This document shows, one piece after another, positions 8,569 to 33,292 of a stretch of 57,484 nucleotides of DNA. The position numbers and the translations under genes are program-made. Positions within the stretch are counted from its first letter, which is position 1, and each line of letters starts with the position of its first letter. The notes under the pieces were generated by a model. The model was not told the origin of the DNA, made no database searches, and saw only the letters and a program-made list of their open reading frames with translations. Origin of the DNA: Candidatus Pacearchaeota archaeon (GTDB taxonomy: Archaea; Nanobdellota; Nanobdellia; Pacearchaeales; GW2011-AR1); the NCBI GenBank assembly GCA_023139205.1, contig JAGLOA010000004.1:1-57484 (forward strand), read 5' to 3'.

Positions 8569-8658
8569 TATCATTTGATTCGAAGCCTTGGGTTTCATTT
8601 GGATGCTAAGCAGACGAATGACGGAGAGTGAAACGACCCACGAATCCTTTTCCTGCAT
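8551..8658. mobile_element. short structured insert flanked by duplicated tRNA-Leu 3' end
   Basis: CGAATCCTTTTCTCCGCAT (8551-8569) vs CGAATCCTTTTC-CTGCAT (8641-8658); hairpin GAAGCC-TTG-GGTTTC in the insert. Confidence 0.6.
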
Positions 8659-20976: not shown

Positions 20977-21534
20977 TCAACAAGATTCTCCTTCAACAAG
21001 CTCTGCTTTTCCACCATCAATCAAAATCTTAGCAATCTCTTTAGGAATATTCGCGATTTGTCCCTTTTCAAAACTCATTTTCTTCCCATCTAAATCTACA
21101 AATTCTTCAACATCTTCAACAAAAACAATTAACTCATTTTGTTTAACTTCTTCTTTTCCATTAAGAATCTCACTTATTTTTTTATCTGAATGATTCACAG
21201 ACCTCATTAAATCCTCAAAAAGATCTTTTTCAAAACTAAACATATTCTCAAAATCTTGTTTTGAAATTCCAGTCTCAGTCGCAATTAAAACTAAATTTAA
21301 AATCTTCTTTCTTCTCCTCAACATAATTTCCTTAAAGAGAGTTAAAGCATTTTCAAGTTGTTTTTTAGCTTTTATAACTACATCAGAAAAAACATCTTCC
21401 TCATTTGAAGAAACATCTTTTTTTTCTTTTAAATAATTAGCCACATCTAAAACAAAATTTTTAGGAATTGGTTGCAATTGTTCAGAATATCTTTCTTTTC
21501 TCGCAGCTTCATAAATTTCATTATAAGTTATCAT
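20977..21534 (-). CDS. DNA replication complex GINS family protein (Gins51-like)
   Basis: MITYNEIYEAARKERYSEQLQPIPKNF; RRRKKILNL; C-terminal B domain FVDLDG...FEKGQIANIP...AKILIDGGKAELV. Confidence 0.8.
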   Translation of the reverse strand: MITYNEIYEAARKERYSEQLQPIPKNFVLDVANYLKEKKDVSSNEEDVFSDVVIKAKKQLENALTLFKEIMLRRRKKILNLVLIATETGISKQDFENMFSFEKDLFEDLMRSVNHSDKKISEILNGKEEVKQNELIVFVEDVEEFVDLDGKKMSFEKGQIANIPKEIAKILIDGGKAELVEGESC

Positions 21535-24622: not shown

Positions 24623-25795
24623 ATGTTTAAATTTTTAAAAGATAAAATAGGAAAATGGGCAAAAAAAGTCTCTGAAAAAACAGAAATAAAAGAAAAACCA
24701 AAAGAAATAGAAACTCCTGTAAAAATAAATCTAAAAGAACAGACATCTAAACAAGATTTAGAAAAAGAAATTAATGAAAAAAAAGTTGAAACTAAAAAAG
24801 AAGTTAAAATTCCTGTAAAATTTAATGCAGGAACACATGCATATGAACCAGATTTAGAAAAGTTAGAAGAAATCAAAAAAGAAGAAGAAACCCCCGAACC
24901 AGGAAAAAAAGGATTTTTCAAAAAAATAACTTCAAAAATAAACAAGGTAAAAATTTCTGAAAAAGAATTTGAAGTTTATTCTGAAGAACTTGAAATGTTG
25001 CTTTTAGAAAATAACGTAGCTTTAGAAGTAGCAGAAAAAATGATTAAAGAATTAAAAGAAAAAATAATCGGAAAAGAACTTTTGAAAAAAGAAGTTGAAG
25101 GAGAAATAAAAGATTGTTTCAAAGAAATAATTGAAGAAATTTTAATAGATCCTTTTGATTTAGTTGAAAAAATTAAAGAGAAAATCTCTAACCAAAAAAA
25201 AGACCCTTATGTGATTTTATTTTGTGGGATAAATGGGACAGGAAAAACAACAACATTGGCTAAAATTGCAGATTCTTTAAAAAGTAAAAAAATTTCTTGT
25301 GTAATTGCTGCAGCAGACACTTTTAGAGCAGCCTCAATAGAACAAATAAAAGAACATGGAGAAAAAATAGGAGTAAAAGTTGTGTCTCAAGAATATGGTT
25401 CTGACCCTGCAGCAGTAGGATTTGATGCAATAAAATATGCAAAAAAGAATTTCATAAATTGCGTTTTAATTGATACAGCCGGAAGAATGCACACTTCAAA
25501 AAACTTGTTAAAAGAAATTGAAAAAATTTCAAGAGTCTGCAAACCAGATACAAAAATATTCGTTGGGGAAAGTATAACTGGAAATGATGTTATAGAACAG
25601 GCAAAAAGTTTTGACTGGGAAATTGGAATTGACGGAGTGGTCTTAACAAAAGCAGATATTGATGAAAAAGGCGGCACAGCTTTGTCAGTAGGTTATATAA
25701 CAAAAAAACCAATTCTTTATTTAGGTACAGGTCAGGCCTATGACAAGATAGAACCCTTTGACAAGCAAAAATTCATAGAAAAATTAGGATTGTGA
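24623..25795 (+). CDS. ftsY: SRP receptor FtsY
   Basis: GINGTGKTTT, AADTFRAA, DTAGRM, TKAD.D.KGG, GTGQ.Y; K/E-rich N-terminal region. Confidence 0.95.
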   Translation: MFKFLKDKIGKWAKKVSEKTEIKEKPKEIETPVKINLKEQTSKQDLEKEINEKKVETKKEVKIPVKFNAGTHAYEPDLEKLEEIKKEEETPEPGKKGFFKKITSKINKVKISEKEFEVYSEELEMLLLENNVALEVAEKMIKELKEKIIGKELLKKEVEGEIKDCFKEIIEEILIDPFDLVEKIKEKISNQKKDPYVILFCGINGTGKTTTLAKIADSLKSKKISCVIAAADTFRAASIEQIKEHGEKIGVKVVSQEYGSDPAAVGFDAIKYAKKNFINCVLIDTAGRMHTSKNLLKEIEKISRVCKPDTKIFVGESITGNDVIEQAKSFDWEIGIDGVVLTKADIDEKGGTALSVGYITKKPILYLGTGQAYDKIEPFDKQKFIEKLGL

Positions 25796-25933
25796 ATTTT
25801 TGTGCAGTCTATATGATTTCTCCAGAGGAAATTGGAAATCACCGTTCAGTGTTTTGGGGGAAGGTTCTAAAGGAAACCAGCCGGTTTCTTTTATTTTGAC
25901 AAACAAAAGTTCATAGAAAAACTTGGATTATGA
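25757..25933. mobile_element. 99-nt hairpin module flanked by synonymously recoded copies of the ftsY 3' end
   Basis: 25757-25795 and 25895-25933 both encode FDKQKFIEKLGL*; 34/39 nt identical, all 5 differences synonymous. Confidence 0.8.
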
Positions 25934-25983
25934 AAGACCATCTAAATCTTTAAAAATAAGGGATTTCTTTCAATCAATAGAAA

Positions 25984-26988
25984 ATGAACGATGATGAACC
26001 TCCTGATTCAAGAACGAATTCTCTAGAAAGAAAATTAACAACAATAATAGTCCAAAAAAACACAGAACCTCTACTCTCTCCAAAGATGCTTAAAGGGAAA
26101 TATAGTTCTATTAGAAATCCTGGAGCATTTACTTATAAAGATAAAATTGGATTGCTTTGCACAGTAAGATATTCTTCAGATAATAAATGCAGATTACATC
26201 TAGCATGGAGTGAAAATGGGAAAGATTTTAGTCTTGAAGAAAATCCATTCATAGATTTAGACCCGGATGCACAAGAAGGAGTAGAAGATTCAAGAGTTTC
26301 AAAAATCGGAAAAGAATATTTTATTACATTCACTGCCTATAAAGGGTATGAAAACAAAGCAAACACAACTAGGGTGGGGCTTATAAAAACAAAAAATTTC
26401 AAATCTTTTTTTGAAAGAAAAATTATACTTGATGAGCATAGAAATAATAAAAATTCATTAATTTTTGAGCATGAAGGGACTCCATGGATAATTGACAGAA
26501 AATTTAGAGGGGATGGAAATGATGAATTTTCTCCAGGGGCAAGAATAGCAAGAATAAAAAACTTAGAAAAAACAGAAATTGAAGAATTCAAACCTTTTTT
26601 AATGCCAAGAAAAGAAAAATGGGATAATGCAAGAACTGGTGTAAACACCCCTCCCATAAAAATGAAACATAAAATTTACGGGGATATTTTATTTATGTTA
26701 TATCATGGGGCAAGTAAACAAGGAAACAGATATCAAATGGGATATGTTATATTAGACGGTAAAAACCCAAACAAAATTTTAGAAAGATCAATAGAACCTC
26801 TTCTCTCCACAGAATTAGATTGGGAAATAGGAAGAGGAAAATATCCTGCAGAAGTAGGAAATGTAGTGTTTGGTTGCGGGGCAATTCCTATAGGAAAAAA
26901 CAAAATAAGAGCATATTATTCAGGAGGAGACAGATATCCTGGATTTGCAGACCTAACAATCAAAAACACAAAAATTAAAGAACAATAA
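25984..26988 (+). CDS. GH130-like glycosidase/phosphorylase (five-bladed beta-propeller)
   Basis: RNPGA, GVEDSRV, NNKN, WDNARTGVNTPP, YHG, NVVFGCGA, YYSGGD. Confidence 0.8.
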   Translation: MNDDEPPDSRTNSLERKLTTIIVQKNTEPLLSPKMLKGKYSSIRNPGAFTYKDKIGLLCTVRYSSDNKCRLHLAWSENGKDFSLEENPFIDLDPDAQEGVEDSRVSKIGKEYFITFTAYKGYENKANTTRVGLIKTKNFKSFFERKIILDEHRNNKNSLIFEHEGTPWIIDRKFRGDGNDEFSPGARIARIKNLEKTEIEEFKPFLMPRKEKWDNARTGVNTPPIKMKHKIYGDILFMLYHGASKQGNRYQMGYVILDGKNPNKILERSIEPLLSTELDWEIGRGKYPAEVGNVVFGCGAIPIGKNKIRAYYSGGDRYPGFADLTIKNTKIKEQ

Positions 26989-27058
26989 TCACAAAACAAA
27001 GATTAATAAAAAACCAAAAAGATTAAAAAGGATTAAAGATAGTATTAACTACTATACA

Positions 27059-27658
27059 ATGGCAATAAAAGGAGCTTTTCAAATGGTTGCAGGATACAGA
27101 ATATTCCTTCTTCATAATGATAATATCTCTGAAGTCCACTCTTTCATTAAAGAAGAACATTGTACAGAAAGTGGGATTGAAGAAGAAGTCCTAAATGAAA
27201 AAAGAGGCGAACTAATCCTAATCCTAAAAGACATTAGGGACAGCGATAATCCTGACAGAGTTAGAGGCTTTGTAGACTGTTTATACAACAATTCTACAAA
27301 AGGAGAAAAAACTCCTCAAAACTTATCTGACTTAGAAAGGGGTTACTTTTTAAAATTCAAACAAGATCCTTTCCATAATTACTTAATTATAAAAGAAGGT
27401 GCAGATAATGTATTGTCCTTAAAGGAACAAGCAGGACTATCACTTTCCTTGTTTTGCTCACGTAAAAACATAAACGAAGATTATAAACATCATGAGAATG
27501 ACCTATGTATAAAATGGATAGATGAAAACGGAGGAAAATTCAGTGAAATTTTTAGAGAAAGTTATATAGAAAAATTAAGTAGAAAACCTTACAAAGTTTA
27601 CAAAAATCTTGAAAGGAATATTTCTAAACTTATTGAAAAAAGAAGTCAACAACCATGA
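27059..27658 (+). CDS. hypothetical protein
   Basis: 199-aa ORF filling the intergenic space; no recognised motif. Confidence 0.6.
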   Translation: MAIKGAFQMVAGYRIFLLHNDNISEVHSFIKEEHCTESGIEEEVLNEKRGELILILKDIRDSDNPDRVRGFVDCLYNNSTKGEKTPQNLSDLERGYFLKFKQDPFHNYLIIKEGADNVLSLKEQAGLSLSLFCSRKNINEDYKHHENDLCIKWIDENGGKFSEIFRESYIEKLSRKPYKVYKNLERNISKLIEKRSQQP

Positions 27659-27721
27659 CCATAAAATCTTTTATAACTAAGAAACCCAAAATTTATTAAC
27701 CATACTTTTACTCAGTATTCT

Positions 27722-29089
27722 ATGCTAGAAAAATTAGGAGAAGTTTTAAGAAAAGCCACAGACAAAATAGCAAATGCTATATTCTTAGACAAAAACCTTG
27801 TTGATTCTATAATCAGAGATTTACAAAGAGCTTTAATTGAAGCAGATGTAAATGTTATTTTAGTCAAGCAAATTAGTGATAAAATAAAAAAAGCTGCTGT
27901 AGATGAAAGAATCAAAGGGATAGATAAAAAAGAACACATAATAAAATTATTACATGATGAACTTAAAAAAATTCTTGGAGAATATAAACAGCTAAAATTA
28001 CAGCCAAAACAAAATAAAATTATGCTCTTAGGTTTATATGGAGCAGGAAAAACAACAACAATCGCAAAACTAGGAAATTATTTTGCAAAACGGGGAAAGA
28101 AAGTAGCATTAATTGGATTAGATGTCCACAGACCAGCTGCACCAGAACAACTAAAACAACTTGCAGAAAAAAATAAACTTACTTGCTTTATAGATTTAAA
28201 AGAAAAAGACCCTCTGAAAATTTGGAAAAAATATGAAAAAGAACTAAAAGATTATGATTTAATTTTAATAGATACTGCAGGAAGACACAATCTTGACAAA
28301 GAACTAGTTAAAGAAATAAAAGAATTAGGAAAGAAAATAAAACCAACAGAAACGATTTTAATAATGCCTGCAGATATTGGGCAAGCAGCAAAAACACAAG
28401 CACAAGAATTCAAAGACGCTGTAAATATCTCTGGAGTAATTATTACAAGAATGGACTCAACTGCAAAAGGAGGGGGAGCTTTAACAGCCTGTGCAGAAAC
28501 ACAAGCTCCGGTTTATTTCATAGCAACAGGTGAAAAAATAAATGATCTGGAAGAATTTGACCCTGAACGTTTCCTTTCAAGACTTTTGGGCATGGGGGAC
28601 TTACAATCTTTAATTGAAAAAATAAAATCAGTTACAGATGAAACCCAGCAACAAAAAATTCAAAAAAAATTAGAAGAAGGAAAATTAAGTTTAGATGATG
28701 TTATCGAGCAAGTAAAATCAATGAATCAATTAGGAGGACTTGATAAAATAAAATCCATGATTCCTGGTATGGGAAATGCAAAAATTCCTGAAAATGTTTT
28801 AGGAACTCAGGAAGAAAAAATAAAAAAATGGGAGCACATTGTGAAATCAATGACTCAGGAAGAAAAAGAAAATCCAGAAATATTAGAAAAACAAACTTCA
28901 AGGATGGCAAGGATTGCAAAAGGTTCAGGAGTTCACACAAGCGACGTGAGATCTCTGCTAAAACAATACAAAATGCTTAATGAAATGATAAAAGGTGGAG
29001 CAGATATGGACATGTCACAAGGAATGAGCCAAAAACAAATGATGAAATTTGCAAAGAAATTTATGAAAGGAAAAAAGATGAGATTTTAA
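27722..29089 (+). CDS. ffh: signal recognition particle protein SRP54/Ffh
   Basis: LQRALIEADVN, GLYGAGKTTT, DTAGRH, TRMDSTAKGGGALT, Met-rich M domain. Confidence 0.96.
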   Translation: MLEKLGEVLRKATDKIANAIFLDKNLVDSIIRDLQRALIEADVNVILVKQISDKIKKAAVDERIKGIDKKEHIIKLLHDELKKILGEYKQLKLQPKQNKIMLLGLYGAGKTTTIAKLGNYFAKRGKKVALIGLDVHRPAAPEQLKQLAEKNKLTCFIDLKEKDPLKIWKKYEKELKDYDLILIDTAGRHNLDKELVKEIKELGKKIKPTETILIMPADIGQAAKTQAQEFKDAVNISGVIITRMDSTAKGGGALTACAETQAPVYFIATGEKINDLEEFDPERFLSRLLGMGDLQSLIEKIKSVTDETQQQKIQKKLEEGKLSLDDVIEQVKSMNQLGGLDKIKSMIPGMGNAKIPENVLGTQEEKIKKWEHIVKSMTQEEKENPEILEKQTSRMARIAKGSGVHTSDVRSLLKQYKMLNEMIKGGADMDMSQGMSQKQMMKFAKKFMKGKKMRF

Positions 29090-29128
29090 AAAGATTATTT
29101 TTAAAATTATAAAAAGTTTAATTTTTAT

Positions 29129-29695
29129 TTATGCTTCATATGTTATTGTTATCCAACCCCGATTATAAGGATCATCATATTCTTCAGAATCAAAATTAGA
29201 ATTCTCAAAAAATCCTCCTGTGAATCTACTTATTAAAATACGATTACTAGTAGTATCTCCAATAGATCCACCTTTCGTTAGCTCAACACTATCACCCAAT
29301 AAAATCGGATAAATCCTAGTATTAGCATCATCTCTTATTATAACGTCTATACTTCTAATTTTAAAATAATTAACCCCAAGCCCATGATCAACCCCCGAAC
29401 CAAATGAAGAAACCATATTCCAATCACCAATTTCAATAACTTTTGTTTTCAAAACAATATTATCTGTTTTTATCCCATCATTGAAAACAGCAACTCCATC
29501 AACTCCCCCACTTAAATCAAGTTCTTCAGCACTATGTCCTACAACAGAAGCAGGTCCTCCAGAGTTATAAGCATAAACTCCAACACCAACTACAGCTAAA
29601 ACTCCAATTACAATCAAAGTATAAAACAATCTGTTAGAAAAATTTATCTGAAGTTTTCCTATTTTAATTTTCTTCACCATCTTTATTAAAAACAT
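29129..29695 (-). CDS. membrane-anchored hypothetical protein
   Basis: N-terminal TM (LFYTLIVIGVLAVVGVGVYA) followed by a beta-rich domain. Confidence 0.6.
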   Translation of the reverse strand: MFLIKMVKKIKIGKLQINFSNRLFYTLIVIGVLAVVGVGVYAYNSGGPASVVGHSAEELDLSGGVDGVAVFNDGIKTDNIVLKTKVIEIGDWNMVSSFGSGVDHGLGVNYFKIRSIDVIIRDDANTRIYPILLGDSVELTKGGSIGDTTSNRILISRFTGGFFENSNFDSEEYDDPYNRGWITITYEA

Positions 29696-29712
29696 TAAAG
29701 AATTGTTCTTTT

Positions 29713-30066
29713 TTAAATATTCCTCTCATCTAAAAAATCTTTAAATTCCTTCTTCAACCATTGTTCACATTTCTCTAAATATTTAGGAGAACTCTTTCCT
29801 GAATCATTCAAAATAAATAAATCTTCATTACAACCATAAGGAGATGGAGAACTTTCATAAAGCAAATAAACATCACTTTCTACATGAAATTTTATATGTT
29901 CACTCTTTTCTTTTAAAGAAGGATATGAAACAACCCCTAATTCCCCAGAATTAATTAATTTATTTAACCTTTTTTCTAAAGCCGAATTTGGATTGTCTTT
30001 TGAACCTATATGTCCCTGATAAGCTATAACTCTCTTCTTGATCATATCTCCATTAAATAAACTCAT
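29713..30066 (-). CDS. hypothetical protein
   Basis: 117-aa ORF, no recognised motif. Confidence 0.55.
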   Translation of the reverse strand: MSLFNGDMIKKRVIAYQGHIGSKDNPNSALEKRLNKLINSGELGVVSYPSLKEKSEHIKFHVESDVYLLYESSPSPYGCNEDLFILNDSGKSSPKYLEKCEQWLKKEFKDFLDERNI

Positions 30067-30119
30067 GAATATAAGAAAATAACTAAGTTTTTAAGCAAAT
30101 CCCTATTCAAGAATATATA

Positions 30120-30554
30120 TTAAATTTTTAGCCTTTTTTTAAGAGCTTCTAAGAAAAAACTTGGAATAGATATTGGTTCTTCTTTTGAAACATCAACAAA
30201 AAGATCTTGTGTTTGTGCAGTAAAAACTAATTCCTGAGAATCATTAAAAAACTGAAAATCCATTTGAAAAAAAGGATTCTTAATTTTAGTTATCTTTAAA
30301 TCAACCTTAAAATTATCTCCATACTTCAAAGATCTTCTGTAAGTAAGATCAAAAAATCTTCTCCTTGTATAAGCAATGTTTTTCTCTTTCCTAAAAAATG
30401 CATCACTCCAACCAAACTGCTTTAAAAATTCTGCCCGAACATACTCACAATATTGAAAATAATCTGCATTATTAAGATGTTCATTACGATCGTTTTTATG
30501 AGATACTTCCAAGTTAAAACTACCTTCATAAAGCAATTCCCCTAATTCTTTCAT
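30120..30554 (-). CDS. acyl-CoA thioesterase, 4HBT/YbgC hot-dog family
   Basis: DRNEHLNNADYFQYCEYVR resembles the DxxGHVNNxxYxxYxExxR motif. Confidence 0.8.
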   Translation of the reverse strand: MKELGELLYEGSFNLEVSHKNDRNEHLNNADYFQYCEYVRAEFLKQFGWSDAFFRKEKNIAYTRRRFFDLTYRRSLKYGDNFKVDLKITKIKNPFFQMDFQFFNDSQELVFTAQTQDLFVDVSKEEPISIPSFFLEALKKRLKI

Positions 30555-30642
30555 AATAAATTTGTAAAATAAAAGTTTTTAAGTTTTATTATATTCAAAA
30601 TAAAATCAATAATCTTATAAATAAAAAAGAACAAGAAAAACT

Positions 30643-30849
30643 ATGGAAATAAAAATAATTTTAGAAGAGCAAAAAGAAGGAGGATACACAACTTATGTGC
30701 CTTCTTTGCCAGGATGCACCTCCCAGGGAGAAACAATTGAAGGAGCACTAAAAAACATTAAAGAAGCAATTGAATTATATCTAGAAGCAGATGAAAATGA
30801 ACTTATTATTTACAAAGACAATGTAAAAACAGAAACAATCACAATATGA
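30643..30849 (+). CDS. hicB: HicB family antitoxin
   Basis: EGGYTTYVPSLPGCTSQGETIEGALKNIKEAIELYLE. Confidence 0.9.
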   Translation: MEIKIILEEQKEGGYTTYVPSLPGCTSQGETIEGALKNIKEAIELYLEADENELIIYKDNVKTETITI

Positions 30850-31064
30850 AAATTCCTCAGATTTCTGGAAAAGAATTAATAAAAAAACTGCGTAAATTTG
30901 GTTTTGTTGTGACAAGGCAAAAAGGTTCTCATATAAGATTAGAAAAAAACACTGAAAACAAAACCATCAAAATCACAATCCCCAACCACCAAATTCTCAA
31001 AAAAGGAACTTTAAACCAAATCATTAAATCAATAGGGTTAACTGCTGAGGAAATTTTTTCTTGA
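30846..31064 (+). CDS. hicA: HicA family toxin (mRNA interferase)
   Basis: ISGKELIKKLRKFGF...RQKGSHIRL...IPNHQILKKGTL; ATGA overlap with hicB. Confidence 0.9.
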   Translation: MKIPQISGKELIKKLRKFGFVVTRQKGSHIRLEKNTENKTIKITIPNHQILKKGTLNQIIKSIGLTAEEIFS

Positions 31065-31124
31065 ATAAAATGAGCCAAAAGCAAATGATGAAATTTATAA
31101 AAAGTAAAAAAATTAAGTTTTAAG

Positions 31125-31580
31125 ATGAACCGAAAAGAAAAGTTAGATTGGTATAAAGAAGAATTTGATAAGATTTGTAAAATTATTCACAACAAAAAAG
31201 AATTATCTTATCTTGATTTCTTAAGAATTAGAAATTTTAAATTACAAAATTCTACAATTGAAGAGGAAAAGAATATTAAAGAGATTACATCTAAAGCATT
31301 TGAATTAGCAAAAAAAGATAAAATTGAAGGATCAATAAAAGAATTGCTCAAATTAAATGGTGTAGCCATACCCATTGCATCTACAATTCTTGCTATGAAA
31401 TTTCCAGAAAAATATGCTATAATTGACAGAAGAGTTATAAAACAATTAAACAAACCCGAATGGATGAAAGATTATTTAAAAAATCCAAAAACTTACAAGG
31501 AATATATTTTAGCAATGAGAAAAACCAAACCTATCAATTTATCTTTAAGAGATTATGAAAGGAGTTTATTTGAAAAATGA
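31125..31580 (+). CDS. hypothetical protein with HhH-like motif
   Basis: LLKLNGVAIPIASTIL...YAIIDRRV resembles a helix-hairpin-helix followed by D, as in HhH-GPD glycosylases. Confidence 0.55.
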   Translation: MNRKEKLDWYKEEFDKICKIIHNKKELSYLDFLRIRNFKLQNSTIEEEKNIKEITSKAFELAKKDKIEGSIKELLKLNGVAIPIASTILAMKFPEKYAIIDRRVIKQLNKPEWMKDYLKNPKTYKEYILAMRKTKPINLSLRDYERSLFEK

Positions 31581-32272
31581 CATCACAAAAAAATTGTTTG
31601 CATGTGGCATCCATCGGAGGCAATTAAAAGATGCCACCGTTCAGTGCTTCGAGGAGAGAGCGCGAGAGAAATCAACGGGTTCTCTCGCAGGGTGCAGAAG
31701 CAAAAATAATTCTTTCAGGAAATTCAATCATAAAAGATAGAATAAAAAAATCATACAGAATCCCAGAACTTGATGAAAAAATTAGAAAATTAAGAACTCG
31801 TTCAGAAACAAAACTTCTTACAAAAGCATCTGAAATAATTAATTGTCCTAAACCTCAAGAACTAAAAGAATTTGATAAAATAAAAATGCCTTTTATCGAC
31901 GGCAAAAAACTTTCAGAACATTTAGATAACTTTCCCTTAAAACAACAAAAACAAATTTGCAATCAACTTGGAGAAGCAATTGCAAAACTTCACGACAATA
32001 ATATAATTCATGGAGATTTAACAACATCAAATATGATTCTAAAAAATGAAGAAGTTTATTTTATTGATTTCGGATTAGGATTTATAAGTCACAAATATGA
32101 AGACAAAGCAGTTGATTTGCATTTACTAAAACAAGCCTTAGAAGCAAAACATTTTCAAAATTACAAAGAACTTTTAAAAGAAGTTTTCAAAGCCTATAAA
32201 AAATCCAAAGACTCTAAAATTGTTTTTGAAAGATTAAAGGCAGTTGAAAAAAGAGGCAGATATAAACACTAA
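31577..32272 (+). CDS. bud32: KEOPS kinase Bud32, 5' end interrupted by a structured insert
   Basis: QGAEA, K.RIKKSYR..ELD..IR..RT..E, IIHGDLTTSNMI, IDFGLG, EDKAVDL; ATG 31577 overlaps upstream stop (ATGA) but in-frame TAA at 31625; alternative ATG at 31631. Confidence 0.9.
31592..31688. mobile_element. hairpin module homologous to the ftsY insert
   Basis: TGGCATC/GATGCCA stem, then CCGTTCAGTG, then GCGAGAGAA/TTCTCTCGC hairpin; same layout as 25796-25894. Confidence 0.75.
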
Positions 32273-33069: not shown

Positions 33070-33182
33070 AATAGCTCCTCCAGGATCCTCGAAGAGGTCT
33101 TGTCCCTCCTTGGGATTCTCGTGCTGGGAGCATTAGCGAGGCAATATCGAACCTTGGTTCGAATCAATAGCCCCACCAGGAT
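33070..33182. mobile_element. short multi-hairpin insert flanked by duplicated tRNA-Gln 3' end
   Basis: Minus strand ATCCTGGTGGGGCTATT (tRNA end) vs ATCCTGGAGGAGCTATT 96 nt downstream; four short hairpins between them. Confidence 0.65.
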
Positions 33183-33292
33183 TCGAACCTGGGTCCCAGC
33201 CTTACTTCAAGCTCCAAAGGAATTGGAGTAATGAAAGATGCAAGCATCTTACTTTCAAAGGGCTGAATACTTGACCACTGTACTATGGGGCT
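33168..33292 (-). tRNA. tRNA-Gln(TTG) with 52-nt intron at 37/38 (33203-33254)
   Basis: AGCCCCA/TGGGGCT acceptor, CAGCC-CTTTGA[intron]A-GGCTG, CCAGG-TTCGAAT-CCTGG; CTTT pairs with intron GAAG as a BHB-like central helix. Confidence 0.88.

Follow-up and report, generated by a model that had tools for sequence, protein, structure and literature searches.

The stretch of DNA analysed here (57,484 nucleotides from a Candidatus Pacearchaeota archaeon, contig JAGLOA010000004.1; "the window" always means this whole stretch) contains two copies of a short hairpin-forming element, one right behind ftsY and one at the 5′ end of bud32. In the order of genes, ftsY (24623-25795) comes first in the region and is followed by a GH130 gene, an unknown open reading frame (ORF), srp54 (27722-29089), three reverse-strand ORFs, a HicB/HicA pair, a 151-aa ORF (31125-31580) and bud32. 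A covariance model built from 25 family members found exactly two copies in the window, the third-best match (16 bits) being the reverse strand of the terminal hairpin of copy 1. CACCGTTCAGTG likewise matched exactly at the two copies only (2 matches in 57 kb; 0.54 expected with 2 mismatches allowed). Each copy consists of a first hairpin (P1), a single-stranded core and a terminal hairpin (P3), and copy 1 is bracketed by two versions of the ftsY end, termed dup1 and dup2:

25757..25795, + strand: dup1, the last 12 sense codons of ftsY (FDKQKFIEKLGL) and the stop, contiguous with the gene body
25796..25812, + strand: spacer of 17 nt from the ftsY stop to P1, homologous in five genomes
25813-25892, + strand: copy 1 of the element, 77.2 bits with the covariance model
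25813..25842, + strand: P1 hairpin of copy 1, 25813-25820 pairing with 25835-25842, loop UCCAGAGGAAAUUG
25843..25864, + strand: conserved single-stranded core of copy 1, CGTTCAGTG-TTTTGGGGGAAGG
25869..25892, + strand: P3 of copy 1, with A-tract/stem 25869-25878, loop AGCC and stem/T-tract 25883-25892, terminator-like in look
25895..25933, + strand: dup2, the displaced second ftsY end, 13 codons, 2 nt past copy 1
31577..31603, + strand: ancestral bud32 start MTSQKNCLH, its ATG overlapping the stop of ORF 31125-31580 (ATGA)
31604-31687, + strand: copy 2 of the element, 70.7 bits with the covariance model
31604-31611/31630-31637, + strand: P1 of copy 2, 8 bp, GTGGCATC/GATGCCAC
31638-31659, + strand: core of copy 2
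31662-31670/31680-31688, + strand: P3 of copy 2, GC-rich and without T-run
31631..32272, + strand: bud32 ORF in its present reading, the first 19-20 residues (MPPFSASRRERERNQRVLS) being element-encoded

The P1 stem of copy 1 comprises 8 bp (ATGATTTC/GAAATCAC); its core is canonical except for GGGG replacing GAGG, and its P3 and T-run are canonical. The two bracketing ftsY ends encode an identical peptide and differ at 6 nucleotides, all of them synonymous (6/6). The same arrangement of dup1 was found in four other genomes (L124, L127, L142 and L246). On the spacer side, TGAATTTTTG, which begins in the ftsY stop codon, is an inverted repeat of CAAAAATTCA within dup1, and this helix is kept in three orthologous ftsY loci, in L127 via G·U pairs. 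A helix joining the start of dup1 to the core over a long range was considered but not taken as a general feature: it can be drawn at three ftsY loci with one compensatory change and is absent at other host genes.

Copy 2 is an 84-nt insertion following codon 9 of bud32. When the 84 nt were removed in silico (31604-31687), MTSQKNCLH was joined to QGAEAKII, which gives an N-terminus like that of insert-free orthologues. The insert holds the Shine-Dalgarno (SD) sequence GGAGG in the P1 loop (31616-31620), a TAA in frame (31625-31627) and, within the 3′ strand of P1, the ATG of present use (31631). Because the TAA at 31625 lies in frame within the insert, the old bud32 start is blocked, and copy 2 now appears to supply both the SD and the AUG of bud32. 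Its P3 lost the T-run through paired substitutions (AAAAAG/CTTTTT to GCGAGAG/CTCTCGC). The bud32 gene of L292 carries the same insertion with the same redesigned P3: core and P3 differ from those of the window at one base, while P1 is changed at 5 of its 8 pairs and the Bud32 proteins are only 65% identical. This likeness of core and P3 would reflect either selection at the nucleotide level or a recent transfer of the 3′ half.

Across the family, the consensus unit is ~78 nt long and is built from P1, the core, an A-rich stretch (UUCAAAA) and P3. P1 is an 8-bp stem of free sequence and conserved pairing, usually GUGGYAUC/GAUGCCAC or GCGAUUUC/GAAAUCGC, and its loop carries YCGGAGGCAAUUA. The near-invariant core reads CCGUUCAGUG, then YUUNGAGGAR. 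P3 comprises ~10 bp counting the A- and U-tracts, with the loop ARCG and the end UUUU(U)A; as a covarying 10-bp hairpin with an A-tract before and T4-T5 after it, it has terminator-like features. Among 74 distinct sequences, 97.2% of the pair cells were paired, against 83.3% in shuffles (0 of 500 reached the observed value) and 40–61% with sliding partners, and double-sided changes occurred at 17 of the 18 pairs. The alignment was fitted to the covariance model, which favours the structure somewhat, and the margin is still large; the pairing signal was already visible when the first nine sequences were aligned by MAFFT alone. The excess of G·U (47) over A·C (11) among the pairs marks the + strand as the folded strand, as RNA or as single-stranded DNA. 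That is, comparison within the family indicates a secondary structure that is selected and strand-specific.

These results bear on a sequence-only reading of the window, which had noticed a hairpin element common to an ftsY and a bud32 insert and had proposed a selected structure in RNA or single-stranded DNA. The two segments are present where it had placed them, their terminal hairpins are real, and the proposed selection agrees with the pairing and G·U counts given above. The three compensatory changes it had seen in the first stem are genuine as well, in a stem of 8 bp that is longer than the 7 bp it had read. An upstream AATT..T(G/T)TGCA, taken there as a shared feature, turned out to be locus-specific, being absent from the bud32 orthologue of L292 and from most copies. 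In-frame copies, the tRNA-intron copy, the boundary rule for the 3′ end and the synonymous recoding of gene ends, all described below, had no place in that reading.

Extra hairpins were found at two points only, namely in the P1 loop (L033, L068, L084, L095 and L127) and in the gap between core and P3 (L061 and L097). In a divergent subfamily P1, the GGAGGCAAUU loop and P3 are kept, and core and linker read C..CMGCG-YCGRAAAGGAAGG:

L041, 11903-11999: divergent subfamily member
L003, 4321-4415: divergent subfamily member
L012, 446-540: divergent subfamily member
L142, ~550-680: divergent subfamily member

Where the outer P1 pairs are changed from GUG/CAC to GCG/CGC, the GUG of the linker is likewise changed to GCG. 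A small peptide gene (GGAGG, an AUG 10 nt on, MPPFS...) was rejected because most subfamilies lack the AUG (GAAATCGC, GATACCAC) and the stem covaries. Loop and core are complementary over up to 12 bp, in most copies no better than with shuffled cores, and the variable core position N does not covary in the corresponding pseudoknot.

At least 70 distinct copies of the element were found, in Woesearchaeota, Pacearchaeota and Nanoarchaeota metagenome-assembled genomes where hosts are named, and in metagenomes. Scanning of public genomes and metagenomes with the core pattern recovered many contigs of low GC; in three collections family members were found, from DPANN archaea only, and the covariance model gave 75 matches in 66 sequences, 74 of them distinct. 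High-GC matches to the pattern were dismissed as chance, many of them being an ABC-F ATPase coding motif; the conserved coding stretch concerned (…GACACCGTTCAGTGGTTGGAGGAATA…) lies in Bacteroidota-like contigs (L015, L019, L020, L027 and others) that are not members. No family members were found in viral contigs, where 0 of 2 pattern matches had the architecture of the element. An Rfam 15 scan of the whole window at gathering thresholds reported tRNAs only, and at E<=10 the two copy regions gave only chance matches of ~13 bits to unrelated models of long non-coding RNAs, small nucleolar RNAs and wcaG. The element is thus a previously uncatalogued structured repeat of ~80 bases of DPANN archaea. 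The sequence-only reading had recognised no known Rfam family either, had called both segments inserts, which agrees with the empty ftsY and bud32 orthologues listed below, and had asked whether only these two copies exist and the covariation vanishes in a larger alignment; given a family this widespread in DPANN archaea, neither is the case, and the covariation holds.

Orthologous sites occur both filled and empty. The site at the 3′ end of ftsY is filled in the window, L124 (86% FtsY identity), L127, L142 and L246 and is empty in L136, L133, L114, L115 and L117-119. At the bud32 site, the window and L292 carry the element, and L201 (protein start MKTIAQGAEA) and L061 (protein start MMKIIQQGAEA) lack it; at the 5′ end of Gins51, it is present in L028, L110, L201 and L304 and missing from L032 and from the window (20977-21534). 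Near-identical units were seen at unrelated loci and in different genomes. Tandem arrays with a period of ~88 nt occur in L005, L007, L073, L084 and L090. The only clean candidate for a target-site duplication is a 15-nt direct repeat (ATGTTAGTTAAATTT) immediately on both sides of the copy in L270 (5786-5900); the copy in L249 is flanked by an 8-nt repeat, repeats of 22-55 nt with a spacer were found in at least 7 gene-end cases, and most copies have no flanking repeat.

Several copies lie inside protein-coding genes. Among the 120 closest MGMT homologues, AISSEAIRNRRSVIRGD(SKRTSGFFL) is found between NPYGY and VPCHRV in about 25, and this peptide is the element translated from its first base through the final TTA. 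Other homologues have at this point the canonical five residues or a four-residue remnant (YGFSSGGDV), which gives an in-frame series of 78, 51, 12 and 0 nt; a genome scan aimed at MGMT loci recovered only insert-free MGMT genes. Copies that are in frame and free of stops were also found in the linker of an RsmB/F methyltransferase (L264, same reading frame as in MGMT), as the reverse complement in the C-terminal tail of Kae1 (L249), and in bud32 of L292. The bud32 copy of the window has one in-frame stop, unlike all other intragenic copies. Element-encoded peptides include AISSEAIRNRRSVIRGDSKRTSGFFL and MPPFSASRRERERNQRVLSQ. All intragenic copies and remnants have lengths that are multiples of three (78, 51 and 12 nt; 84 nt in bud32), which together with the in-frame erosion gives an indirect hint that mRNA and protein keep the inserted peptide.

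The NP...PCHR segment of MGMT also harbours several other, unrelated inserts of 14-25 residues in DPANN homologues (P0017, P0026, P0044, P0058, P0060, P0082, P0083 and P0098), in one of which (P0098; L308 1501-1872) KNPY is duplicated on both sides of the insert. This segment is an insertion hot spot.

One copy lies in a tRNA gene, the tRNA-Glu(UUC) of L235, where an element in reverse orientation makes up about the whole 89-nt intron at the canonical position (ARAGORN i(39,89)):

L235, contig CAYITA010000069.1, 2396-2484, - strand: tRNA-Glu intron copy

With respect to genes, the two ends of the element behave differently: its 3′ end lies within 0-5 nt of a gene boundary, and the distances on the 5′ side vary from 12 to 60 nt. 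The positions relative to the 3′ end are:

+2 or +3: same-strand tRNA start (Asp, Leu, Gly x2, Val, Glu), 6 cases
+1 to +4: 3′ end of an opposite-strand tRNA, 5 cases
-1 to +5: stop of a convergent ORF, 8 cases
+3: same-strand ATG, at least 5 cases

In several convergent cases the terminal TTA of the element doubles as a TAA stop. The tRNA genes of the window have TATA boxes (TTTTAAA) that end near -22/-23, and in copies abutting a tRNA or an ATG the TTCAAAAAG of the element sits at -29 to -22. Judged by these positions, the 3′ module may stand in for the promoter of near-leaderless transcripts, and the P3 hairpin with its tracts on both sides could terminate transcription that arrives from either side. 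Genes that recur beside the element are Gins51 (10 loci), a phosphoglycerate mutase, eS1, ftsY and bud32. A riboswitch or leader was rejected because the downstream genes (tRNAs, RNase J, eS1, Gins51 and others) share no theme.

The duplicated end of ftsY is one of several. At a number of essential genes the layout reads gene body, dup1 (the gene end), a spacer of 8-32 nt, the element, 0-2 nt, dup2 (the second gene end) and an unrelated flank:

ftsY: 3′ end duplicated, 39 nt, five genomes
SMC: 3′ end duplicated, ~42 nt, L259
Gins51: 5′ end duplicated, opposite strand, 30-55 nt, four genomes
tRNA: 5′ end duplicated, opposite strand, 22-24 nt, L208 and L243

The two gene ends are identical in L201, L304 and L208, and elsewhere they differ mainly at synonymous sites. 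Thus, dup1 and dup2 of ftsY in L124 show 13 differences in 39 nt and one amino-acid change, in L246 Arg is encoded by CGT in one copy and by AGA in the other, and in L259 the two Ser codons of SMC both read TCA in one copy and AGT in the other. In L127 and L246, both copies share lineage-specific residues. Past dup2, the sequences of the five ftsY loci are mutually unrelated. At Gins51, SMC and the tRNAs, P1 is immediately preceded on its 5′ side by 6-9 nt that are reverse-complementary to the opening bases of the duplicated stretch; the ftsY case differs, in that the spacer pairs with the middle of dup1 and complementarity before P1 is missing. Such flank complementarity is limited to copies that bear a duplication. 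As a general cause of the conservation of dup2, a small ORF leading from the ftsY stop across the element and on into dup2 was rejected, since only L124 has its frame open; frameshifts or stops interrupt it in the window, L127 and L246. Upstream of the element in L208, a second, different repeat (TTTCTACCAYTGTAGTTTCTTTTTTCTAAAAAGAAACCC), also found downstream in L067, lies beside another duplicated copy of the same tRNA 5′ end; therefore, this site was struck serially by different elements.

Elsewhere in the window, the 3′ end of srp54 (MSQKQMMKF...) is present twice, at 29024-29089 and 31070-31125. The two ends bracket a 2-kb insert with the three reverse-strand ORFs (one a thioesterase) and the HicB/HicA pair; the second end is diverged and shortened (MSQKQMMKFIKSKKIKF, then stop), a gene-end-replacement pattern with no hairpin element at the junction. 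Pfam gave no match for two ORFs adjoining the inserts (31125-31580, 151 aa; 27059-27658, 199 aa). Of these, the 151-aa one has the displaced srp54 end on one side and the bud32 insertion on the other, and it overlaps each of them via ATGA or TAAG-ATG junctions. Two tRNA genes (one Leu, the other with an intron) are followed by a shared TTGATTCGAA(G/C)C..GG with a GAACC/GGTTC-type hairpin:

8575-8590, + strand: tRNA-trailer module, undetected by the covariance model of the element
33152-33167, - strand: tRNA-trailer module, likewise undetected

The suggestion of the sequence-only reading that these trailers and the element form one family in two orientations receives no support from the covariance model, the trailers sharing a different short motif. 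A 125-nt Rfam tRNA match (33168-33292, - strand) was missed by the default run of ARAGORN and has an intron of ~50 nt unrelated to the element.

In our reading, both sequences are probably copies of a mobile repeat of DPANN archaea that is non-autonomous, is structured by hairpins and belongs to the general class of miniature transposable elements with inverted repeats (MITEs), repetitive extragenic palindromic (REP) sequences and Rickettsia palindromic elements (RPEs). Such a repeat would spread as DNA via a structure-dependent, probably single-strand, mechanism supplied in trans; since no transposase partner was found, we infer this mechanism of mobility. The distribution of extant copies would then reflect survival only where they are harmless. 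A resident copy would be transcribed with its host gene, P3 and the U-tract would terminate transcription in both directions, the TTCAAAAAG box, lying 22-29 nt upstream of the tRNA or start codon that the element abuts, could replace a displaced promoter, and the loop GGAGG together with an AUG in P1 could serve as a start site. Resident copies are best described as co-opted to mark gene boundaries and, in the case of bud32, to provide a start site. Close to an essential gene's end, the element would arrive with, or be rescued by, a recoded gene end from another lineage. On the simplest reading, a unit of gene end, spacer and element comes in from another lineage and takes the place of the resident end, much like integrative elements that replace gene ends; alternatively, an in-frame insertion may later have been rescued by recombination with an intact foreign allele.

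Several observations weigh against a mobile repeat. No transposase, integrase or reverse transcriptase was recurrent within several kb of ~57 loci (whole genomes were not searched), nor did the window ORFs scanned contain a domain of any of the three, and the partner of the HUH/RAYT or integrase type that the sequence-only reading had suggested looking for was thus not encountered. Terminal inverted repeats are missing, the 5′ end (GYGRYWTC) and the 3′ end (GGTTCTTTTTA) not being complementary, and no target-site duplication is constant, the observed repeats measuring 0, 8, 15 and 22-55 nt. Orthologous copies retain pairing and core across large host divergence, P3 in bud32 was rebuilt with G·C pairs, and the retained core and P3 of bud32 look like selection for function and not like the decay of junk. 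The displaced ftsY ends of five genomes stay open and evolve mainly at third codon positions, which neither a single old insertion nor neutral decay easily explains; the coding-type evolution of dup2 in these genomes is apparently only partly explained. Moreover, the in-frame copies were collected from predicted proteins, so that their sampling favours open reading frames, and terminator and promoter roles are read from position alone.

The retained core and P3 lead to a different proposal, namely that the copies are a functional structured RNA under selection at the host level (a cis-acting leader or trailer, sibling small RNAs or a small ribozyme), that the genes with copies are the regulated ones, and that P1, the loop GGAGG, the invariant core and P3 are recognised by a conserved cellular machine. 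The core is invariant over three phylum-level DPANN groups, covariation is strong with a strand-specific G·U bias, variable-length hairpins are confined to two permissive points, orthologous copies are kept beside ftsY, Gins51, bud32 and MGMT, and the compensatory rebuilding of P3 in bud32 is common to two distant genomes. Complementarity between loop and core even allows a P1-pseudoknot-P3 layout reminiscent of pistol-type folds, but this pseudoknot has no significant covariation or energy support, and no ribozyme or riboswitch model matched even at E<=10. The copies lie in both orientations relative to host genes, including Kae1 and the tRNA intron, in-frame copies sit in catalytic or linker regions of unrelated proteins, the flanking genes have no common functional theme, and orthologous sites are both filled and empty, so that we consider a host-selected RNA unlikely. 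Very doubtful, in our view, is a small intron-like element, cut from mRNAs and pre-tRNAs by the archaeal splicing endonuclease and RtcB or by a hairpin pathway like the RtcB-dependent 'SOS splicing' that excises hairpin-forming transposons from mRNA in animals (PMC12779559). On this view, an essential gene would suffer no harm from an insertion, and the duplicated gene end downstream would serve as a genuine exon; indeed, one copy is the entire tRNA-Glu intron at the canonical position, the MGMT copy directly precedes the catalytic PCHR, where an insert of 26 residues looks harmful, native bud32 is restored on removal of 84 nt, and the downstream ftsY and SMC ends evolve as coding sequence. 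However, every intragenic copy or remnant is a multiple of three and all are open except the bud32 copy of the window; multiple-of-three lengths, open frames and in-frame erosion therefore speak for translation and not splicing. A bulge-helix-bulge (BHB) is absent from the predicted folds of ORF copies, and none with the exons is possible because P1 and P3 fill the very ends of the insert, P1 starting at its first base and P3 ending at its last. Splicing is not needed at gene ends because the upstream copy carries its own stop, reverse-oriented copies cannot use the same RNA fold, and the tRNA case, where the tRNA itself supplies the helix, is explicable as insertion into, or as, an ordinary BHB intron.

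The duplicated gene ends also suggest that the element is the recognition or guide module of a site-specific or RNA-guided homing system encoded elsewhere, be it the remnant of an integrase att arm, an IS200/IS605-like guide with a hairpin end or the scaffold of a guide RNA. The unit of gene end, spacer and element would home into the same conserved gene end of naive genomes, with the recoded end as the rescue copy and the flank that matches the wild-type gene as the target. The layout recurs at four or five different essential genes, the recoding includes switches between codon families of Ser and Arg, the 3′ flank is always conserved gene sequence, the 6-9 nt 5′ of P1 in Gins51, SMC and the tRNA recall the guide of IS608, and the separate 2-kb insert of the window is likewise bounded by two srp54 ends. 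But no recombinase or nuclease partner was identified near the ~57 loci, most copies have neither duplication nor flanking complementarity, the ftsY case has none before P1, a U-run separates the scaffold from a putative 3′ guide, and circles of a 120-140 bp unit are implausible as double-stranded substrates; taken together, we regard homing as quite improbable. Carried further, the element might be the structured module of a natural homing system of the 'cleave-and-rescue' kind or, alternatively, represent a new class of very small archaeal introns, a speculation to which we attach very little probability. Here, a recoded gene end with spacer and hairpin RNA would invade the end of an essential gene, the recoded copy keeping the gene working, and the displaced wild-type-like copy or the 6-9-nt complement before P1 would give a nuclease or recombinase, guided by RNA or by structure and encoded elsewhere, its match to naive alleles. 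If true, this would explain why both gene ends look selected at the protein level, why nucleotide identity is avoided and why the 3′ flank is always conserved.

DPANN archaea have genomes among the smallest and most compact of all cellular organisms, and to our knowledge their non-coding and mobile content is almost undescribed. An abundant structured repeat missing from RNA-family libraries can serve as a marker for annotating these genomes, where the translated element inflates or splits gene calls in MGMT, bud32, RsmB, Kae1 and ftsY. As a mobile repeat, it would be an archaeal parallel to the in-frame selfish elements of Rickettsia and a concrete route by which a tRNA intron may arise from mobile sequence, and it suggests that a mobile module can bring along complete signals for transcription stop and start and for ribosome binding. 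The presence of recoded duplicates at the ends of essential genes points to a kind of recombination or homing that still awaits characterisation in archaea.

How does a mobile DPANN repeat compare with known systems? Like MITEs, the element is small, multicopy and non-coding and shows presence/absence polymorphism. With the wider group of MITEs, REP sequences, bacterial interspersed mosaic elements (BIMEs), SPRITEs and Correia and ERIC elements it shares being non-autonomous, mostly intergenic, co-transcribed with neighbours and clustered in tandem, and some members of that group resemble rho-independent terminators or carry promoter elements. It differs from them in that no terminal inverted repeats, fixed target-site duplication or cognate transposase/RAYT were seen and in that it conserves a single-stranded core and not the sequence of its stems. 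Recognition of a folded single strand, as in palindrome-associated elements derived from IS200/IS605 and in integron attC sites, would fit its variable sequence, conserved structure and favoured strand; the guide-like complementarity just 5′ of the hairpin foot recalls IS200/IS605, and a hairpin loop of varying length recalls the variable part of attC. However, neither TnpA/TnpB nor IntI lies near the element, R and L boxes are missing, its two hairpins are mutually unrelated, and long flank duplications are a feature of neither system; two independent hairpins with a single-stranded core, outside cassette arrays and with no intI-like neighbour, do not make an attC site. Nor do dup1 and dup2 behave as the template and variable repeats (TR/VR) of a diversity-generating retroelement (DGR), their differences being synonymous and of all base types, and no reverse transcriptase domain was found in the window ORFs scanned. 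Some integrative elements replace the end of their target gene with an incoming, synonymously diverged copy that is functional (e14 or phage 21 in icd; tRNA-targeting archaeal elements). Direct repeats of the gene end bracket the insert in both systems, whereas the bracketed DNA in DPANN archaea measures ~100 nt, has no integrase, and hits many genes with one structured module.

RPEs appear to be the closest analogues of the DPANN element, the MITE- and REP-type repeats being looser ones. They integrate in frame into many unrelated ORFs (PMC10969869). Both are short, hairpin-forming and multicopy without coding capacity for their own mobility, and both occur in frame in unrelated housekeeping ORFs, where translation, probable for the DPANN element, yields extra peptide segments, as well as in RNA genes and intergenic DNA (PMC10969869). 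The two differ in several ways: the DPANN element is archaeal and ~78 nt long, compared with ~100-150 nt in RPEs, and consists of two separate hairpins with an invariant single-stranded core, whereas an RPE is a single long palindrome. The element is further set apart from its Rickettsia counterparts by G·U pairing that is specific to one strand, by a terminator-like U-tract at an end flush with gene boundaries and by recoded duplicates of gene ends.

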